Assembly: GCA_963796275.1 (NCBI GenBank)
Contig: CAWCKY010000007.1
Span: 256,001 to 320,000, forward strand
DNA from: an uncultured Acidobacteriota bacterium
GTDB lineage: Bacteria > Acidobacteriota > Blastocatellia > RBC074
DNA length: 64,000 nucleotides
Reading direction: 5' to 3'
The notes under the pieces: model-generated
What the model was told of the DNA's origin: nothing
The model's database searches: none
The model's input: the letters and a program-made list of their open reading frames with translations, nothing else
Translations under genes and position numbers: made by a program
Shown here: positions 4,515 to 23,096 of the stretch, piece by piece
Layout: every line of letters starts with the position of its first letter
Position numbering within the stretch: position 1 is the stretch's first letter

Positions 4515-5317
4515 GGCTCCAGAGGAGCCTAATGTTTATAGTTCGCGGCATCTAACTATATTTTTGAGCGCCGGAGGAGCGACATATCGGACTATTCGCT
4601 CATGCCGAAATTGGCATTACCTGCTCGAGCTTGGATTGTCACACCACCTCTCGAAATTATCATTGTTAGTCTTCGATGAAATCGAAAACATATTTGTCCT
4701 CAAAGGCGATATCGAACTTCCTCAACAATCCCAGGTATTCGCCTTTGAATGAGCTCTTGCCGTGATGCTCCTCTTGATTTCGAAGGTAGCGGATCACATT
4801 CCCCAATTGTGAATGTGAGTATGAGAATGCACCGAACCCTTCCTGCCAATGGAATCTGCCTTTCACCCAACGCCGCTCATTGATGAACTTCGAGGAGCTG
4901 GCTTTAACATCCCGTACCATATCTGACAGAGCGATATTCGGTTTCATACCGATCAACACGTGCAGATGATCGGGCATTCCGTTAATCGCAATCAGCTTCT
5001 GACCCTTATTGCGAATAATGCCGGTGATATATTGGTATAGCTCTTCTTTATAGTTAGGCTTGATCAGATTTTGCCACCCCTGCATGGCAAAGACCACTTG
5101 AATGTAGATTTGTGTGTACGTGTCAGCCATGTGTCCCTCCATTGTTGTTGAACCAAGTGTTCGTAAGGAGTGGCCGACAGTCTGTAAGATTTACAGAAAT
5201 GGGATGAACGAGTCAAACCAAAATCCAGAGGGGGCAAATTCCGCACATTCCGCTCCTCCGCCGGAGCTTGGGGAAGGGGGCAGATTTGAACTATATACAT
5301 CTGGCCCCTCTGGGGCT
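4515..5317. mobile_element. REP-flanked Y1 transposase element: two REPs on the left (4515-4541, 4567-4587), two inverted REPs on the right (5245-5268, 5291-5317), around tnpA
   Basis: GGCTCCAGAGGAGCC..ATGTTTATAG and AGCGCCGGAGGAGCGACATAT are mirrored by ACATTCCGCTCCTCC(GCC)GGAGCT and CTATATACATCTGGCCCCTCTGGGGCT. Confidence 0.75.
4666..5130 (-). CDS. tnpA: IS200/IS605-family Y1 (HUH) transposase, REP-associated type
   Basis: HUH motif MPDHLH, WQEGFGAFS and catalytic Tyr in IRYLRNQEEHH. GGAGG RBS before the ATG at 5130. No tnpB. Confidence 0.9.
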   Translation of the reverse strand: MADTYTQIYIQVVFAMQGWQNLIKPNYKEELYQYITGIIRNKGQKLIAINGMPDHLHVLIGMKPNIALSDMVRDVKASSSKFINERRWVKGRFHWQEGFGAFSYSHSQLGNVIRYLRNQEEHHGKSSFKGEYLGLLRKFDIAFEDKYVFDFIED

Positions 5318-5616
5318 AAAGATTATAAGTCGATCAGCGAATTCGGCGACCGGTTAATGGTGACTCAGTTCCTTTCCGATTGGATAGCGCGCCGCTGTGT
5401 TTTTATTACCGCTGTCCCGGAAAATTGCGACCCTGTCCTCCGGGGCTTTGGAAAGGGGTTCAGGTTTGAACTATATACATCTGGCCCCTCTGGGGCTAAA
5501 AGATTATAAGTCGATCAGCGAATTCGGCGACCGGTTAATGGTGACTCAGTCCCTGTCCGATTGTATAGTGCGTCGCTGTGTTTTTATTACCGCTGTCCCG
5601 GAAAATTGCGACCCTG
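5254..5616. repeat. Imperfect tandem duplication, ~181-bp unit (5254-5435, 5436-5616)
   Basis: Direct comparison. The unit is the right REP pair + intergenic DNA + last 10 codons (incl. stop) of the TPR gene. Confidence 0.95.
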
Positions 5617-6612
5617 CACCGCTTCCAGCACGGTCGGGTTTTCCCGCCTCAGTTTCAGCGACAGCTCTTTTTCTTTGCGCGCCTGCTCTTCGTCGCCTAG
5701 CCGGAAATAGACTTGTGACAGCAGCAGGTGCGGCTGTGGATGATGCGGGTCGAGCCGCGCGGCCTCGTTGAGCTCTTTCACCGCCTGTTCCCATCGCTTG
5801 AGCCCCATCAGTGCCCGGGAGAGCGCGACGCGTGCGGGAACATAATCTGTCCTGATTTTGATAGCACGTTCCAAATATGGAATTGCTTCCTCATAACGGC
5901 CAAATTGCTGCATCAGGTCGCCGTAAAAAAATGGCGGCTCCTCATAGGATGGATCTAGCGACATCGCCTTTTCCAATTCCTTGAGCGCCTCATCGGTCTG
6001 GCCGACCTTCTGCAGATGGAACCCGTACTCGAAATGGGCCCGCGCTGACTGCGGGAACCGCTTCACGGCGCGGCCCGCGAGCTCGAGCGCCTCCGCGTAC
6101 AATCCGGCATCCTGGTGCGACTTGATAGCAAGGTAGTAAGCATTCGCGTCATCCGGGGCAAGTTCCACAGCCCTTCGAGCAGCATCAGCCGCCTCTTGAA
6201 AATAACGGCCCTTGCCATACTCCACCGCCATGACTTGCAGAAGCTTGACGTTCTTCGGGTTCAGCTTCAGCGCGGTTCTCCAGGCGAGCAGCGCATCCTC
6301 GCGCCGCTCAGCAGCCTGATAACACGCGCCCCGCAGGTAATGAGTATTGAAGTCTTGCGGGGATATCTTAGCCGCTCTTTCAAGGAGAGGAATCGCTTCG
6401 TTGATCTGTTTGCGCGAGAAGTAGAAGTAACCGAGATTGAAAAGGGCAGGAAAATATCGCGGCGACAGGTCAATCGCCTTTAGCCACAGGCGCTCCGCTT
6501 CCTCGTATCGCCGGGCTTGCGCTGCCTGTTGCGCAGATTCCGAAAGCGCCGACGGATCCTGCGCGTACAAGGTTGCCGAGATCATCGTCGCAATAACTAC
6601 AATCTTTATCAT
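5587..6612 (-). CDS. Exported tetratricopeptide repeat protein
   Basis: Signal peptide (..LYA-Q) and repeated TPR signatures (A..L.P..., LG..Y). Confidence 0.9.
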   Translation of the reverse strand: MIKIVVIATMISATLYAQDPSALSESAQQAAQARRYEEAERLWLKAIDLSPRYFPALFNLGYFYFSRKQINEAIPLLERAAKISPQDFNTHYLRGACYQAAERREDALLAWRTALKLNPKNVKLLQVMAVEYGKGRYFQEAADAARRAVELAPDDANAYYLAIKSHQDAGLYAEALELAGRAVKRFPQSARAHFEYGFHLQKVGQTDEALKELEKAMSLDPSYEEPPFFYGDLMQQFGRYEEAIPYLERAIKIRTDYVPARVALSRALMGLKRWEQAVKELNEAARLDPHHPQPHLLLSQVYFRLGDEEQARKEKELSLKLRRENPTVLEAVQGRNFPGQR

Positions 6613-18339: not shown

Positions 18340-20016
18340 ATGGCCACAAAAGCGATTGCGTTAGAGGGTGCGCCGGGAGCCCGTCTTCCCATCACGACTC
18401 GGCTAAACGATCTGGTTTTCACGGTAGACCACAAGAAGCTCGGCCTGATGTATATCGCTTCGGCACTGTTCTTCTTTGCGGTGGCGGGCTCGATGGCCGC
18501 AGTCATGCGATTGCAACTTGTCGTTCCGAATAACGACCTCGTCTCCCCACAAGTCTTCAATCGTTTCTTCACGATGCACGGGACCGCAATGGTCTTCCTG
18601 GTCGGCATGCCGATTCTGGCCGGGTTAGGGAACTATCTGGTGCCGCTGATGATTGGGGCGCGCGATATGGCCTTTCCCAGACTCAACGCCTTTGGCTTCT
18701 GGATGTTCTTCTTCGGCGGGCTGATGCTCTATTTCAGCTATCTCGCGGCGCCCGGACTGACGGGCATCGGCTCGGCTCCGGACGTCGGCTGGTTCGCCTA
18801 TGCGCCGTTGACCGCCCGTGCCTTCTCCCCCGGGCAGAGCACCGACTTCTGGATTTTGAGCATTATGCTTGGCGGCGTCGGGAGCATCGTCACAGCGATC
18901 AATCTCATCGCGACTATTGTCAGTATGCGATGCAAGGGAATGACGCTCATGCATATGCCGCTGCTCGTCTGGATGATGCTGATCGTGGCGGGAATGATCC
19001 TGCTCGCCATGCCTCCGCTGTCGGCGGCGCAAATCATGCTCTTGCTCGACCGGTATCTCGGAGCGATGTTCTTCGACACCCAGTCTGGCGGATCGGCGGT
19101 GTTGTGGCAGCACTTCTTCTGGATCTTCGGTCACCCTGAAGTCTACATATTGATTATCCCGGGTTTCGCCTGTATCTCGGAGATCATTCCCGTCTTTTCC
19201 CGCAAGCCGATCTTCGGATACCCGTTTATGGTGGCTGCAGTTGTCATGCTCGGCTTCATAAGTCTGGGCGTCTGGGCGCATCACATGTTCACAGTAGGGA
19301 TGAGTTCGATTGGCAACACCTTCTTCGCTATCACGACGATGCTGGTGGCAGTTCCCACGGGTATCAAAATCTTCAATTGGCTGGGAACGATGTATGGAGG
19401 CAAGATTCGCTTTGAACCCCCGATGCTCTTTTGCATTGGGTTCCTCTTTCAGTTTCTCATCGCGGGACTGACTGGCGTTATGCTGGCAGCAGCCCCGTTC
19501 GATTGGCAGTTGAGCGACTCCACCTTCGTGGTGGCCCACTTCCACTTTGTGCTGATCGGCGGCCTCCTCTATGCAGTTTTTGCAGGAATCTATTACTGGT
19601 ATCCGAAAGCCATCGGCAGAATGCTCAACAAGAAGCTGGGTCTCTGGCATTTCTGGCTCTTCACCATCGGGTTCCATCTCACCTTCGACACCATGCACCT
19701 CCCGGGACTTCTGGGAATGCCGCGACGAATTTATACCTACGATGACGGGCGAGGGTGGGAGATCTTCAACCAGATTTCGACGATCGGAGTTGCCTTTCAG
19801 GGCGCGGCTGTCCTCTGTTTCGTTATCAACCTGATCCGGTCCGCGCGGAATGGCGAGGAAGCGGGTGATGATCCCTGGGATGCTTGGACGCTCGAATGGT
19901 CCACGACTTCACCACCTCCACCGTATAACTTCGAAGTTTTGCCGAAAGTGAGGAGCACGCGCCCGTTATGGGACCTTAAGCATCCGGAAGATCCGGACTG
20001 GCGATACGAAGGCTAA
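18340..20016 (+). CDS. ctaD: Cytochrome c oxidase subunit I, type A1
   Basis: TMHG, GHPEVY, WAHHMF, PTGIK, AHFH and GMPRR. Confidence 0.97.
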   Translation: MATKAIALEGAPGARLPITTRLNDLVFTVDHKKLGLMYIASALFFFAVAGSMAAVMRLQLVVPNNDLVSPQVFNRFFTMHGTAMVFLVGMPILAGLGNYLVPLMIGARDMAFPRLNAFGFWMFFFGGLMLYFSYLAAPGLTGIGSAPDVGWFAYAPLTARAFSPGQSTDFWILSIMLGGVGSIVTAINLIATIVSMRCKGMTLMHMPLLVWMMLIVAGMILLAMPPLSAAQIMLLLDRYLGAMFFDTQSGGSAVLWQHFFWIFGHPEVYILIIPGFACISEIIPVFSRKPIFGYPFMVAAVVMLGFISLGVWAHHMFTVGMSSIGNTFFAITTMLVAVPTGIKIFNWLGTMYGGKIRFEPPMLFCIGFLFQFLIAGLTGVMLAAAPFDWQLSDSTFVVAHFHFVLIGGLLYAVFAGIYYWYPKAIGRMLNKKLGLWHFWLFTIGFHLTFDTMHLPGLLGMPRRIYTYDDGRGWEIFNQISTIGVAFQGAAVLCFVINLIRSARNGEEAGDDPWDAWTLEWSTTSPPPPYNFEVLPKVRSTRPLWDLKHPEDPDWRYEG

Positions 20017-20039: not shown

Positions 20040-20639
20040 ATGACTGGTGGCGATGCGTTGTCTTTAGGAATTGAATCCACCGAGTGGAAACTGCCGTCAC
20101 GGCGCAAGACCGCTCTGCTCATGTTAATCCTGACGGAGACCACTCTCTTCTCGATTTTCATCGCCGCATATGTCTATTACATAGGCAAGAGTTTAACAGG
20201 ACCCTATCCGAAAGACGTACTGGAATTGCCGGTCATCGCCACGATTTGTTTGCTTTCGAGCAGCGTGACGGTCGTCCTTGCCGAACGCGCCTTCGCGCGG
20301 AATAACAGTTCCGGTTTCAGGTTGTGGTGGTTAATCACTATTGTCCTGGCTCTGATTTTCCTTTCTTCGACTGCAAGGGAATGGTATGGGCTGATCACAA
20401 AACATGGGCTGACGATCAGCACCAATCTGTTCGGAACTACCTATTACGCGTTGGTTGGTTTACACGCGTCTCACGTGATCATTGGTCTGATCCTCCTCGT
20501 TTTGGTTATGTTACTGAGTTTGCGCGGCTATGTGAGGCAAAGAAACGCCGAACATCTGCAGATGATCTCCTGGTACTGGCATTTTGTGGATGCAGTCTGG
20601 GTCGTTGTCTTCACGTTGGTATACGTAATAGGGCGTTAA
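20040..20639 (+). CDS. ctaE: Cytochrome c oxidase subunit III (short form)
   Basis: GLHASHV and WYWHFVDAVW; 199 aa. Confidence 0.93.
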   Translation: MTGGDALSLGIESTEWKLPSRRKTALLMLILTETTLFSIFIAAYVYYIGKSLTGPYPKDVLELPVIATICLLSSSVTVVLAERAFARNNSSGFRLWWLITIVLALIFLSSTAREWYGLITKHGLTISTNLFGTTYYALVGLHASHVIIGLILLVLVMLLSLRGYVRQRNAEHLQMISWYWHFVDAVWVVVFTLVYVIGR

Positions 20640-20774
20640 AAATAGTTTTAAGTTTTAAGTTTTAAGTTTGCTGATGCAAATTACAGTATTTCCGAAAACC
20701 ACAAACTAAAACTGAAAACTCAAAAACTGAAGAACTAGAACTAAGAACTAAGAACTAAAAACTAAAAACTAAAA
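20640..20774. repeat. Inverted heptamer-array element
   Basis: (AGTTTTA)n ... (AAAACTA/AGAACTA)n directly after the ctaE stop. Confidence 0.85.
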
Positions 20775-20986
20775 GTGACCGCTCAACCTCTTCGCCGCGT
20801 TAGCGGCGGATGATTGTAGCCGTGGGTTTTAACCCACGGAAGGCTTGAAGGAAATTCCCGCGTCGCGTTAGCGACGCCTGAATTCAACCGTCGCTGACGC
20901 GACGTGAAAAAATCTACCGCCACCGTGGGTTAAAACCCACGGCTACAATCAACCGCCGCTAACGCGGCGAAGAGGCTGAGCAGTTA
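20775..20986. mobile_element. REPIN-like composite palindrome with GTRACYGCTCA ... CTGAGCAGTTA termini
   Basis: Symmetric hairpins CGCCGCGTTAGCGGCG, CCGTGGGTTTTAACCCACGG and CGTCGCGTTAGCGACG with their inverted partners. Confidence 0.8.
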
Positions 20987-21603
20987 ATTTCAGTTTTTAG
21001 TTTTAGCTGAGCTGTCTCGATCAGCAACTAAAAACCAAAAACTATATATGTTATCCGATAAGAATAAAGAACAAGTTCCTGCCGCCATCGAGATGCCGGC
21101 GCCAACCTACTGGCCGCTGGTCCTGGCATTCGGGATCACGTTGTTATCAACCGCCACCGTGGGCGGCTACAATCAACCGCCGCTAACGCGGCGAAGAGGC
21201 TGAGCAGTTAATTTCAGTTTTTAGTTTTAGCTGAGCTGTCTCGATCAGCAACTAAAAACCAAAAACTATATATGTTATCCGATAAGAATAAAGAACAAGT
21301 TCCTGCCGCCATCGAGATGCCGGCGCCAACCTACTGGCCGCTGGTCCTGGCATTCGGGATCACGTTGTTATCAACCGCCACCGTGGGCGGCTACAATCAA
21401 CGCCGCTAACGCGGCGAAGAGGCTGAGCAGTTAATTTCAGTTTTTAGTTTTAGCTGAGCTGTCTCGATCAGCAACTTAAAACTTAAAACTTAAAACTATA
21501 TATGTTATCCGATAAGAATAAAGAGCAAGTTCCTGCAGCCATTGAAATGCCGGCGCCGACCTACTGGCCGCTCGTCCTGGCCTTCGGGATAACGTTGTTA
21601 TCG
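20917..21603 (+). repeat. Three tandem ~224-bp units (REPIN right half + heptamer element + first 34 codons of the downstream gene)
   Basis: GGCTACAATC recurs at 20941, 21165 and 21389; ATGTTATCCGAT recurs at 21048, 21272 and 21502. Confidence 0.97.
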
Positions 21604-22359
21604 GCCGGGCTGGTCACCCACATTGCCGTCAGCGCGATCGGGTTGCTGCTTACGCTGCGGGCTGCGGTTGGTTGGTTCAAGGATATCTTTCCGGTTGAGA
21701 AGCATGAGCCGGTCCCTGTGGTTCCGGAGTCCCAGCGTGCCGAGCCCATAAAAACCTCTTCGCGTTCGGTGGCTCGACTGCAGGCAGGTGTGGCAAATCA
21801 TCGAGTGCGCATCCCGGCGACGTTCCATCCATATTCGACCGGGATCAGAGGAGGTCTCGCAGGCGGGGTTGCGATGGCCATAGTCGCCTGTCTTTATGGA
21901 CTCATCGCGCACGGCAGCATCTGGTATCCGGTCAACCTGCTTGCCGCAGTCGCGCTGCCCTCGCTGGCTAAGGCAGATTTGGAGCAGTTGAAGGCTTTCA
22001 ATGGTATGGCCTTCATCCTCGCCATACTCTGCCACGCGGCGATCTCAAGCCTTGTGGGATTACTCTTTGCCGTCCTGCTTCCGATGTTGCCCTCGCGCCG
22101 CGCTGCTTTCTGGGGGAGTTTTTTCAGCCCAATTCTATGGTCGGCTCTGGTCGGGGCGACCCTCAACTTGATCAATCCTGTACTGAATGCGCGCATTGAT
22201 TGGGTCTGGTTTGTTGCCTCGCAGATCGCTTTTGGAATGGTCACAGGCTACATCGTTCACCACTCGAAGATGGTCGAGACGATGCAAACGTGGCCGCTGG
22301 CTGCGAGGGCCGGGCTGGAGACTCGAGGCGATGTCCATGGGAATAAAGGAGAGGAATGA
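21502..22359 (+). CDS. Polytopic membrane protein of the oxidase operon; N-terminus resembles subunit IV / the missing first helices of subunit III
   Basis: MPAPTYWP + two TM helices, a soluble linker, then several further TM helices. Overlaps the start of the next gene (ATGA). Confidence 0.7.
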   Translation: MLSDKNKEQVPAAIEMPAPTYWPLVLAFGITLLSAGLVTHIAVSAIGLLLTLRAAVGWFKDIFPVEKHEPVPVVPESQRAEPIKTSSRSVARLQAGVANHRVRIPATFHPYSTGIRGGLAGGVAMAIVACLYGLIAHGSIWYPVNLLAAVALPSLAKADLEQLKAFNGMAFILAILCHAAISSLVGLLFAVLLPMLPSRRAAFWGSFFSPILWSALVGATLNLINPVLNARIDWVWFVASQIAFGMVTGYIVHHSKMVETMQTWPLAARAGLETRGDVHGNKGEE

Positions 22360-23096
22360 GACGGAGGCGACTGATTGCTGCGAATCTATTAGCCCTTGCC
22401 ATATTCGGTCTTATCCCCGCGTGTGATTGGATGCCAGGAAGACCGAACCCGGAGGATCGATGGAAGCGACCGACGGAGATCAAGGGTTTCAACCAGCTAT
22501 TTAGCCAGAATTGTTCCGGATGCCATGGAGCGAATGGACGCCAGGGGGCTGCCCAGCCGCTCAATGATCCGCTCTATCTGGCGGTGGTTACTGAGGAGAC
22601 ATTGCGACAGACAATTGCGCAGGGCGTGCCTGGCAGCCTCATGCCGGCCTTCGCTGAGAGTGCCGGGAGGAATCTCACCGGCGCTCAGATCGAGGTGTTG
22701 GTGGGAGGGATGAGATCACTATGGGCTCGCCCCAATGAATTCTATAACGTGGAGCTTCCGCCTTACAGCCTGCAGGACGCAATAGCGAAAGGCTCCGGAC
22801 CTGGCGACCCACAACGCGGGACGACGGTCTACCAAACTTATTGTGCGCAGTGTCACGGCGAGGGAGGCATCGGAGGGGAAAAGGCCGGCTCCATCGTCGA
22901 TCCGAACTTCCTGGCGCTGGTCAGCGATCAATCTATTCGCACAACTGTGATTACCGGGAGGCCGGATCTGAAAAAACCGGATTGGCGATCTAATCTGGAT
23001 GGTCAGGCGATGACTCCGCAGGAACTATCTGACGTCGTAGCGTGGTTATCGTCATTGCGCCGGGGTTCGGGAGCACAGGTGTCTTTGAAGCCCTGA
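22356..23096 (+). CDS. Diheme c-type cytochrome, probable lipoprotein
   Basis: CSGCH and CAQCH motifs, MPAF distal ligand and LIPAC lipobox-like. Confidence 0.9.
   Translation: MRRRRLIAANLLALAIFGLIPACDWMPGRPNPEDRWKRPTEIKGFNQLFSQNCSGCHGANGRQGAAQPLNDPLYLAVVTEETLRQTIAQGVPGSLMPAFAESAGRNLTGAQIEVLVGGMRSLWARPNEFYNVELPPYSLQDAIAKGSGPGDPQRGTTVYQTYCAQCHGEGGIGGEKAGSIVDPNFLALVSDQSIRTTVITGRPDLKKPDWRSNLDGQAMTPQELSDVVAWLSSLRRGSGAQVSLKP

Follow-up and report, generated by a model that had tools for sequence, protein, structure and literature searches.

How can truncated copies of a gene start lie directly beside the intact gene while carrying another, purely synonymous version of its codons? The question is raised by a locus in a 64,000-nt stretch of DNA (the window) from an uncultured Acidobacteriota bacterium, which corresponds to C7:256001-320000 of a 9.46-Mb genome in seven contigs (completeness 94.7%, contamination 5.2%); positions without a contig prefix refer to the window. 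Between ctaE, the gene for cytochrome oxidase subunit III, and an intact 285-aa membrane gene lies a tandem array in which repetitive extragenic palindromic (REP) sequence alternates with two stubs of the membrane gene, each comprising its first 34 codons.

Two alleles of one gene start

Alignment confirmed that the two stubs are identical and encode the same first 34 aa as the intact gene, as a preliminary description made from the sequence alone had reported. Compared with the start of the gene (21502-21603), the stubs differ at exactly nine positions, all of them synonymous third positions that leave the 34 residues unchanged (stub/gene: GAA/GAG, GCC/GCA, ATC/ATT, GAG/GAA, CCA/CCG, CTG/CTC, GCA/GCC, ATC/ATA and TCA/TCG), of which the ninth (TCA/TCG) lies at the junction and may be part of the join rather than of the allele. 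Random single-base changes in these codons are synonymous in 24-30% of cases, and the probability of nine synonymous differences out of nine is 3e-6 to 2e-5 under neutral decay, 1e-5 to 7e-5 for eight out of eight when the junction codon is dropped, and 1.6e-4 in a model in which the gene is under constraint and decay in place affects the stub alone. Over 23.8 synonymous sites, the synonymous divergence (dS) between stub and gene is 0.45-0.53 and the nonsynonymous divergence (dN) is 0. Differences this biased are far too synonymous for a decaying duplicate and indicate that stub and gene start diverged as functional alleles. As far as sequence goes, these statistics show stub and gene start to be two alleles shaped by purifying selection (S in the stubs, R in the resident gene), in line with the preliminary description, which had excluded a decaying duplicate.

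Among relatives, 22 of 84 fetched loci matched from residue 1 or 2 and were used to align allele states. Judged against the metagenome loci L013 and L089 and the paralogue on contig C2, the stub has the shared state at four of the nine sites and the gene at one, with four ambiguous; as shared states are split between the two, both alleles carry derived silent changes. The most conserved motif of the family, EMPAPTxWP, falls inside the 34 residues. No paralogue with the stub codons was found in the genome, so that the full-length paralogue of stub sequence that the preliminary description had considered is absent; the only paralogue, at C2:747404, has 70% DNA identity. This paralogue was also tried as a conversion donor and rejected, having the resident's state at two of the nine sites and the stub's at five.

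The array and its surroundings consist of the following features:

20642..20668, forward strand: left heptamer block (AGTTTTA)n; inverted repeat I4, 27 nt, 100% complementary to the resident leader, 804 nt apart
20758..20839, forward strand: left arm of an inverted REP pair (REPIN) with A-rich heptamers, second palindrome, GTAG (20816-20819) and hairpin (20820-20839); inverted repeat I1, 82 nt, 93% complementary to 20923-21004
20840..20915, forward strand: REPIN centre with two more small palindromes, within the repeated family (87-92 BLAST hits over it)
20916..21047, forward strand: non-coding part of unit 1, with ACCGCCA, intact hairpin (20923-20942), CTAC, REP right arm and leader S
21026-21047: leader S, AACTAAAAACCAAAAACTATAT; the family consensus extends to about 21044 in 42-45 hits
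21048..21149, forward strand: stub 1, allele S, ATG and 33 codons; the frame continues into the REP as a 51-aa open reading frame (ORF), 21048-21203
21150..21271, forward strand: non-coding part of unit 2, with junction, hairpin without TTAAAACCCA, REP arm and leader S
21272..21373, forward strand: stub 2, identical to stub 1; 45-aa ORF, 21272-21409
21374..21472, forward strand: REP arm of unit 3, with the same truncated hairpin and one further 1-nt deletion, otherwise as in units 1 and 2
21473..21501, forward strand: leader R, (AACTTAA)3 AACTATAT; unlike leader S and a perfect inverted copy of 20642-20668
21502..22359, forward strand: intact 285-aa membrane gene, allele R, an ORF with no function assigned, between ctaE and the cytochrome c, Rieske and cytochrome b genes

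Tandem Repeats Finder placed the array at 20940-21602 (period 224, 2.9 copies, 95% matches, score 1186). The 224-bp unit is composed of the REPIN right arm, an A-rich heptamer leader, the ATG and 33 further codons, and 20940-21163 agrees with 21164-21387 at every position (100%). From the stubs the sequence passes directly into ACCGCCACCGTGGG followed by CGGCTAC, that is, into the REP hairpin minus TTAAAACCCA, so that the jump back into a REPIN right half with a shortened hairpin stood as previously described; the start required correction, as ACCGCCACCGTGGG begins at 20916 and not at 20917. The resulting stub-REP junction string has two matches in the 9.46-Mb genome, both at the array. The joint is situated 7 nt before the REP hairpin, where a microhomology (ATC, two bases, CCG) is common to gene codons 33-36 and the REP flank. 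The peptide tails of the stub ORFs are REP-encoded and unlike each other in stubs 1 and 2.

Over about 97 nt the three REP arms are free of substitutions, and the hairpin loss and one 1-nt deletion are all that sets them apart, whereas the leaders (22 nt for S, 29 nt for R) and the codons that follow them differ while the sequence to their left matches. The switch from identical to diverged sequence is therefore sharp, at about 21470-21477, and coincides with the end of the last REP arm, which agrees with the REP breakpoint proposed at the outset.

The leader of the resident gene forms part of a further symmetry, since the 27-nt perfect AGTTTTA-heptamer inverted repeat (20642-20668 and 21473-21499) brackets the whole 804-nt insert. 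In the predicted minimum-free-energy RNA fold of 20630-21515 (region z = -19.8) this repeat is the closing stem, bringing the ctaE stop next to the intact ATG, and the stub leaders do not pair with the block beside ctaE. The repeat could have arisen by correction of a quasi-palindrome, could mark where a composite insert flanked by TA begins and ends, or could serve to restore the coupling of ctaE and the membrane gene. Each stub-REP junction (21144-21173 and 21368-21397) also creates a sigma-70-like TTATCA-18-TACAAT (9 of 12 matches) that points at the next unit; a promoter scan gave two sites compared with 1.4 +/- 1.2 in shuffles, which is not significant.

The REP family and further stub loci

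The REP at the study locus consists of a GTAG-tagged hairpin, CCGTGGGTTTTAACCCACGG, and a second small palindrome, and is paired in inverted orientation as a REPIN with 82-nt arms that are 93% complementary and 83 nt apart. GTAG (20816-20819) precedes the left hairpin at 20820-20839, and the right hairpin at 20923-20942 is followed by CTAC, as expected from the short GC-rich palindrome with a GTAG tag by which REPs are defined in the consulted part of PMC3733652. The family comprises 147 merged arm sites and 49 exact 20-nt hairpins, with 205 BLAST hits to the 407-nt element, about 45 of which extend to its right end. The copies lie mostly between genes, as judged by eye at 18 right ends. This end is a variable run of AAAACTR heptamers, which a start codon follows immediately at several of those 18. 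The heptamer end often lies 0-10 nt from the start codon, sometimes with no Shine-Dalgarno sequence between them (for example at C4:1081302, C4:929963, C3:262039 and C4:727319), and genes downstream may draw leaders or promoters from the element. Hairpins within arrays are often aberrant, with a 10-11-nt stutter of variable middle base at 16 sites genome-wide in addition to the 10-nt loss at the study locus. The second-palindrome segment also occurs in a run with 40-nt spacing (C4:241834-242192), a much shorter array than the others. Beyond this genome, the 50-nt REP core is 94% identical in G025, a genome of another family.

The REP family is disproportionately present in tandem arrays: eight of 29 non-redundant long arrays (Tandem Repeats Finder, period of at least 100, at least 90% matches) contain it, though it covers only 7 kb of the 9.46 Mb. 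Near-identical head-to-tail units of REP and adjoining unique DNA were also found at C6:113k, C6:639k, C3:263k and C7:472k, and two of these loci contain gene stubs, bearing out the expectation that REP-bounded stubs recur. At C6:113249-114300 (L097 450-1500), which Tandem Repeats Finder did not list and BLAST detected, the order is a full REPIN, 270 nt from the start of a transketolase gene, a REPIN centre and right arm with a stuttered hairpin, and the intact gene. The transketolase stub has a frameshifting 1-nt deletion and one silent substitution. In the second arm at this locus, the REP core agrees with the reverse-complemented left arm in 44 of 45 positions, compared with 41 of 45 for its tandem partner, which suggests strand switching between inverted arms. 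Here the arms differ while the flanks are identical, the reverse of the study locus; together with the 94% identity of the core in G025, this means that arm identity says little about age. At C6:639100-639870 (L098 1600-2370), the last 159 nt of a gene for a sigma-54 response regulator (an activator with a Fis-type helix-turn-helix) plus REP occur three times, and both downstream stubs carry three silent and two replacement changes relative to the gene, one of them a stop codon.

Joint positions vary among the three loci, lying 7 nt before the hairpin at the study locus, 23 nt before it at C6:113k and just beyond it on the other side at C6:639k, and all three joints have short homology between gene and element. 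This pattern fits hairpin-provoked slippage and template switching rather than a site-specific cut. The two C6 loci are what in-place duplicates look like in this genome, and neither has a foreign allele. The preliminary description had further expected REP-bounded stubs with dN = 0 and dS > 0 elsewhere; neither C6 locus has this pattern, and a genome scan (577 local repeat pairs and 219 rows of ORF overlap, from ungapped pairs 60-1500 nt apart and adjoining open frames of at least 150 codons) returned no further REP-adjacent case. Other rows with a synonymous bias came only from internally repetitive ORFs with no REP (C3:1150-1152k, C3:1162-1163k and C3:1243k).

Origin of the mixed array

We consider it probable that the locus records recombination between two diverged lineages, with the switch at the last REP arm, superimposed on a tandem duplication that arose through REP hairpins, microhomology and unequal crossing-over. 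The structure is young and lineage-specific, since G002, a genome of the same genus, has no insert between ctaE and the membrane gene (16 nt compared with 862 nt here), and none of 71 relatives' loci contains a stub (five gave a second hit, all with E values of at least 2.3 and not real). Near-identical direct-repeat arms of ~100 nt are also unlikely to last until dS reaches 0.5, which makes it most likely that the two alleles were juxtaposed recently.

The early history can be inferred from the anatomy. A GTAG-type REPIN would have invaded the spacer between ctaE and the membrane gene, with its A-rich right end abutting the start codon. An illegitimate join at ATC..CCG would then have linked gene codon 34 to the REP flank, at a distance of 7 nt from the hairpin, resulting in a tandem copy of REP right arm, leader and 34 codons. 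The second stub would stem from unequal crossing-over between REP arms, which explains the truncated hairpin common to units 2 and 3, and the hairpins of the internal copies would have lost 10 nt by slippage. Finally, a single inter-lineage recombination would have united the two alleles, with its switch point probably within the last REP arm or where that arm ends. The recombination may have taken two forms: an in-place duplication followed by homologous gene replacement rightwards from the last arm, which we slightly prefer, or the illegitimate joining into codon 34 of foreign DNA that ended in its own REP half and was anchored by downstream homology, in which case the host's own gene start would remain as the stub. 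REP-proper segments turn over independently of their flanks and the core is 94% identical in G025, so the arms can serve as stretches of identity between diverged lineages. For recombination between lineages, the stubs are inert relics and no HUH enzyme is needed; the role of the REP arms is that of hairpin hot spots and near-identity stretches shared by diverged genomes, nothing more.

Several observations weigh against such recombination. A full-length allele with the stub codons, for which the preliminary description had proposed a search, was not found among 75 metagenome and nine genome loci, nor in G001 or G002. The best of these relatives of the membrane gene reached 82% and 79% amino-acid identity, and G001 (same genus, 87% complete) had no match to the membrane gene. 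The proposed phylogenetic switch between ctaE and the downstream genes was likewise not visible, at a distance (~80% identity) that gives no resolution: for ctaE, the membrane gene and cytochrome c, identity is 81.5%, 80.4% and 78.4% with L013, the closest metagenome relative, and 80.5%, 80.5% and 81.7% with G002. None of the sequencing runs searched holds the locus (the best contained 12% of 105 sampled words), and no read or contig crosses it in X1-X4, so the linkage of both alleles on one molecule rests on the assembly. Contigs from X1-X4 represent REP copies from elsewhere or belong to relatives at 87-90% identity and break off at the spacer, contigs of X3 and X4 cover 21516-22464, and three from X1 are 100% identical over 21716-22500, the only stretch so matched. 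Allele divergence is, moreover, a single case, the other stub loci having none. That the resident leader repeats the block on the ctaE side perfectly, in inverted orientation over 27 nt, is awkward for imported DNA, although a template switch at a quasi-palindrome could have made this copy. The absence of substitutions among the three arms over ~97 nt is not predicted by the variant in which foreign DNA was joined into codon 34.

A merger of two co-occurring populations during assembly or polishing would give the same picture, if one population had a recent, all-alike triplication and the consensus switched to the other within the shared REP arm. The genome is in seven contigs with 5.2% contamination, its relatives in the collections are metagenome-assembled genomes, related populations at ~87-90% identity occur in soil and plant runs with contigs breaking at the spacer, and none of the runs searched holds the locus, all of which would accord with a chimera. 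However, the stub-REP junction string is novel and present twice, so the joint must exist in real molecules, and 100 nt of identical arm would not be long enough to confuse the overlap of long reads. A consensus with a minority insertion yet majority bases alongside would contradict itself, and no long haplotig-like duplicates of near-identical sequence are obvious between contigs (self-matches of at least 1.5 kb at 85% or more, 231 in all, are mostly local paralogue arrays). We regard a chimera as unlikely. Quite improbable is an old in-place duplication whose stub ORFs (51 and 45 aa, one transmembrane helix) are selected micropeptides, with the arms homogenised later by REP-specific conversion and the second stub of recent date. 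It would account for a dN of 0 across 34 residues that contain EMPAPTxWP and overlap a weak Cyt_c_ox_IV match, the stubs retain the leader found before start codons at other element copies, and REP-proper segments do convert independently of their flanks. Yet tandem repeats are unstable, near-identical direct repeats being lost by recombination, and arms of ~100 nt should have recombined away long before dS reached 0.5; in addition, no stub was found in the 71 relatives' loci or G002, other stubs of this genome are visibly dead, and the peptide tails are REP-encoded and different in the two stubs. Neutral decay of an ordinary duplicate with a synonymous pattern by chance has in its favour that decaying stubs exist elsewhere in the genome, nothing more, and at P of at most 2e-5, or 1.6e-4 under the most generous model, it is rejected statistically and can practically be dismissed.

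The preliminary description had proposed instead that a REP/HUH system captures or replaces flanking alleles. In such a scheme, a REP-associated HUH (Y1) transposase would cut at the REP and mobilise or capture the flanking allele, and systems of REPs and REP-associated tyrosine transposases (RAYTs) would drive gene exchange. Nine Y1_Tnp (HUH) matches were found in the genome, and the study REP family flanks only two of them, neither of which is in the window:

C4:611677-612021: intact Y1 transposase, Y1_Tnp 95.6 bits; five family hairpins within 1.5 kb
C6:308723-308959: degraded Y1 transposase; six family hairpins within 1.5 kb
4666-5142, reverse strand: IS200-like Y1 transposase in the window, flanked by its own small palindrome pair (2-3 genome copies)

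The intact C4 gene with its flanking REPs would be consistent with capture, as would the REP hairpin region that bounds all stub units and the frequent aberration of internal hairpins (16 stutter variants genome-wide, a 10-nt deletion here). However, no study-family hairpin lies within 1.5 kb of the window transposase, the joints of the study locus and C6:113k are 16 nt apart with the third on the other side of the hairpin, and the other stub loci contain no foreign allele. Junctions at different positions of the element imply that there is no fixed cleavage site, whereas Y1 enzymes of this group act by single-strand cut-and-paste at defined sites. We know of no read-through into flanking DNA by these enzymes, and the signature of rolling-circle capture, a fixed end with flanking DNA carried elsewhere, was not seen, the study stub sequence occurring in the genome only beside its parent gene. 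The repeat at 5254-5616, previously taken to support capture, belongs to another repeat family: it is a 181-nt duplication (two copies) of the right flank of the window Y1 gene and takes in 30 nt from the end of the TPR gene at 5587-6612, with no difference between the two copies of these 30 nt. This stub equals its gene, so the repeat has no allele signal. HUH-mediated capture is thus very improbable, and a new function of REP/HUH systems is not supported by the present data.

The window and C4 Y1 proteins both pass the NCBIfam IS200/IS605 model (73.3 and 60.5 bits, cut-off 55) and score 16.8 and 35.4 bits against REP_Tyr_transpos (cut-off 80), placing them outside the RAYT subfamily proper. 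This agrees with the separate 'TIRYT' group to which the consulted part of Di Nocera et al. 2013 (PMC3733652) assigns acidobacterial enzymes.

Returning to recombination between lineages, a wider role of the REP arms can be imagined. Kept near-identical by their transposase, they would be portable islands of identity and hairpin break points between lineages, an idea that we hold to be doubtful. If true, genomes too diverged for recombination in coding DNA (dS about 0.5) could swap REP-adjacent genes and leave stubs as scars, and REPINs would be preferred borders of inter-species allele replacement in REP-rich soil Acidobacteria. Nicking by Y1 enzymes might supply the DNA ends for such REP-bordered exchange.

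Known systems and genomic setting

The allele difference is real and statistically strong, and the locus is probably a recombination scar within a type of REPIN tandem cluster that has already been described. In the parts of the literature available to us, tandem REPIN/REP clusters that include flanking sequence are given for P. fluorescens SBW25 (16 clusters; Bertels & Rainey 2011, PMC3116915) and tandem REP clusters with flanking DNA also appear in Di Nocera et al. 2013 (PMC3733652). Head-to-tail units of REP or REPIN and adjoining unique DNA are common to those clusters and the present one. As far as these sources reach, the difference is that here the flank is a functional gene start or end, leaving dead stubs, that the stub keeps another synonymous allele, and that the host is an Acidobacterium. 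The special feature is the allele difference. REPIN tandem clusters can thus cut genes and leave stubs, and annotation is likely to list the ORFs of 51 and 45 aa as genes. Provided that one molecule really carries both alleles, the stubs preserve, as a built-in fossil, the allele from across a recombination event, a rare and self-documenting record of exchange at about species-level divergence in an uncultured soil group, and the locus hints that REP arms set recombination borders.

REP sequences at the join points of tandem duplications were reportedly observed by Shyamala, Schneider and Ames in 1990. Short direct homologies at duplication joints have been explained by template switching (Slack et al. 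2006, PMC1428787, in the consulted part). Joints at REPs or short direct homologies are shared with the present locus; to judge from that material, the laboratory duplications are of kilobase to 100-kb scale and laboratory-selected, whereas those described here are natural, span 224-460 bp and have one endpoint inside a gene.

Displacement of alleles offers another comparison. In Vibrio cholerae, an incoming type VI secretion system effector allele is said to replace the gene while a piece of the old one remains alongside, and orphans of Rhs and contact-dependent inhibition (CDI) systems are displaced gene ends left beside the replaced allele. Homology-facilitated illegitimate recombination (HFIR) combines one homologous and one illegitimate joint, according to the part of PMC3240628 consulted. 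The likeness lies in an incoming allele taking over the gene while a fragment of the old allele remains as a fossil, and the microhomology of an illegitimate joint is present here as ATC..CCG. As these systems are portrayed in the material at hand, they concern divergent toxin ends under diversifying selection; here, in contrast, the same 34 residues of a housekeeping respiratory-chain gene are involved, a 5' end is left, and the joint is at a REP.

IS91, ISCR and Helitrons are rolling-circle HUH elements that capture flanking DNA. They share with the study locus the HUH enzyme family and gene fragments beside element ends, but there is no read-through signature or fixed end here, the HUH class is the Y1 IS200 type, and the fragments are local tandem copies that were not transduced to new sites.

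The array interrupts a row of respiratory genes in the order ctaD, ctaE, 285-aa membrane gene, dihaem-type cytochrome c, Rieske protein and cytochrome b, within which the position of the membrane gene, with ctaE on one side and the genes of cytochrome c, Rieske protein and cytochrome b on the other, is conserved. The two genes upstream of the array are:

18340-20016: ctaD
20040..20639, forward strand: ctaE (cytochrome oxidase subunit III), upstream neighbour of the array; Pfam COX3, 72.6 bits

The ctaE product scores under the cut-offs of the NCBIfam subunit III models, and the 285-aa membrane protein has only sub-threshold Pfam matches (DUF6789, 22 bits, cut-off 27.1; Cyt_c_ox_IV, 17.6 bits, cut-off 26.9). 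In L013, the spacer between ctaE and the membrane gene (L013 430-542) is occupied by a palindromic insert of ~80 nt that is unrelated and has short repeats of its own, and this spacer seems to be a recurrent landing site of hairpin elements. Elsewhere in the genome, paralogous segments of 2.5-8 kb that share 85-98% identity form large local arrays at C4:130-190 kb, C4:305-326 kb, C7:1055-1069 kb and C1:1189-1209 kb, and both ends of contig C1 are inverted copies of each other (4.2 kb, 94%).

A final observation concerns the REP core. The full 46-position Rfam model RF01687 (Acido-Lenti-1), an RNA motif listed by Weinberg et al. 2010 (PMC2864571, in the part consulted), aligns at both REP arms (20793-20839, reverse strand, and 20923-20969, forward strand) with 28.6 and 28.2 bits, below the gathering score of 37. 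The 8-bp hairpin, GGCUA, spacer and 5-bp hairpin of the motif are also found in the REP core, but the motif here is a multi-copy DNA repeat beside a Y1 transposase rather than a single RNA gene. As it forms a GTAG-type repeat of 147 sites that flanks a Y1 transposase, the published Acido-Lenti-1 'RNA motif' may be a REP family.

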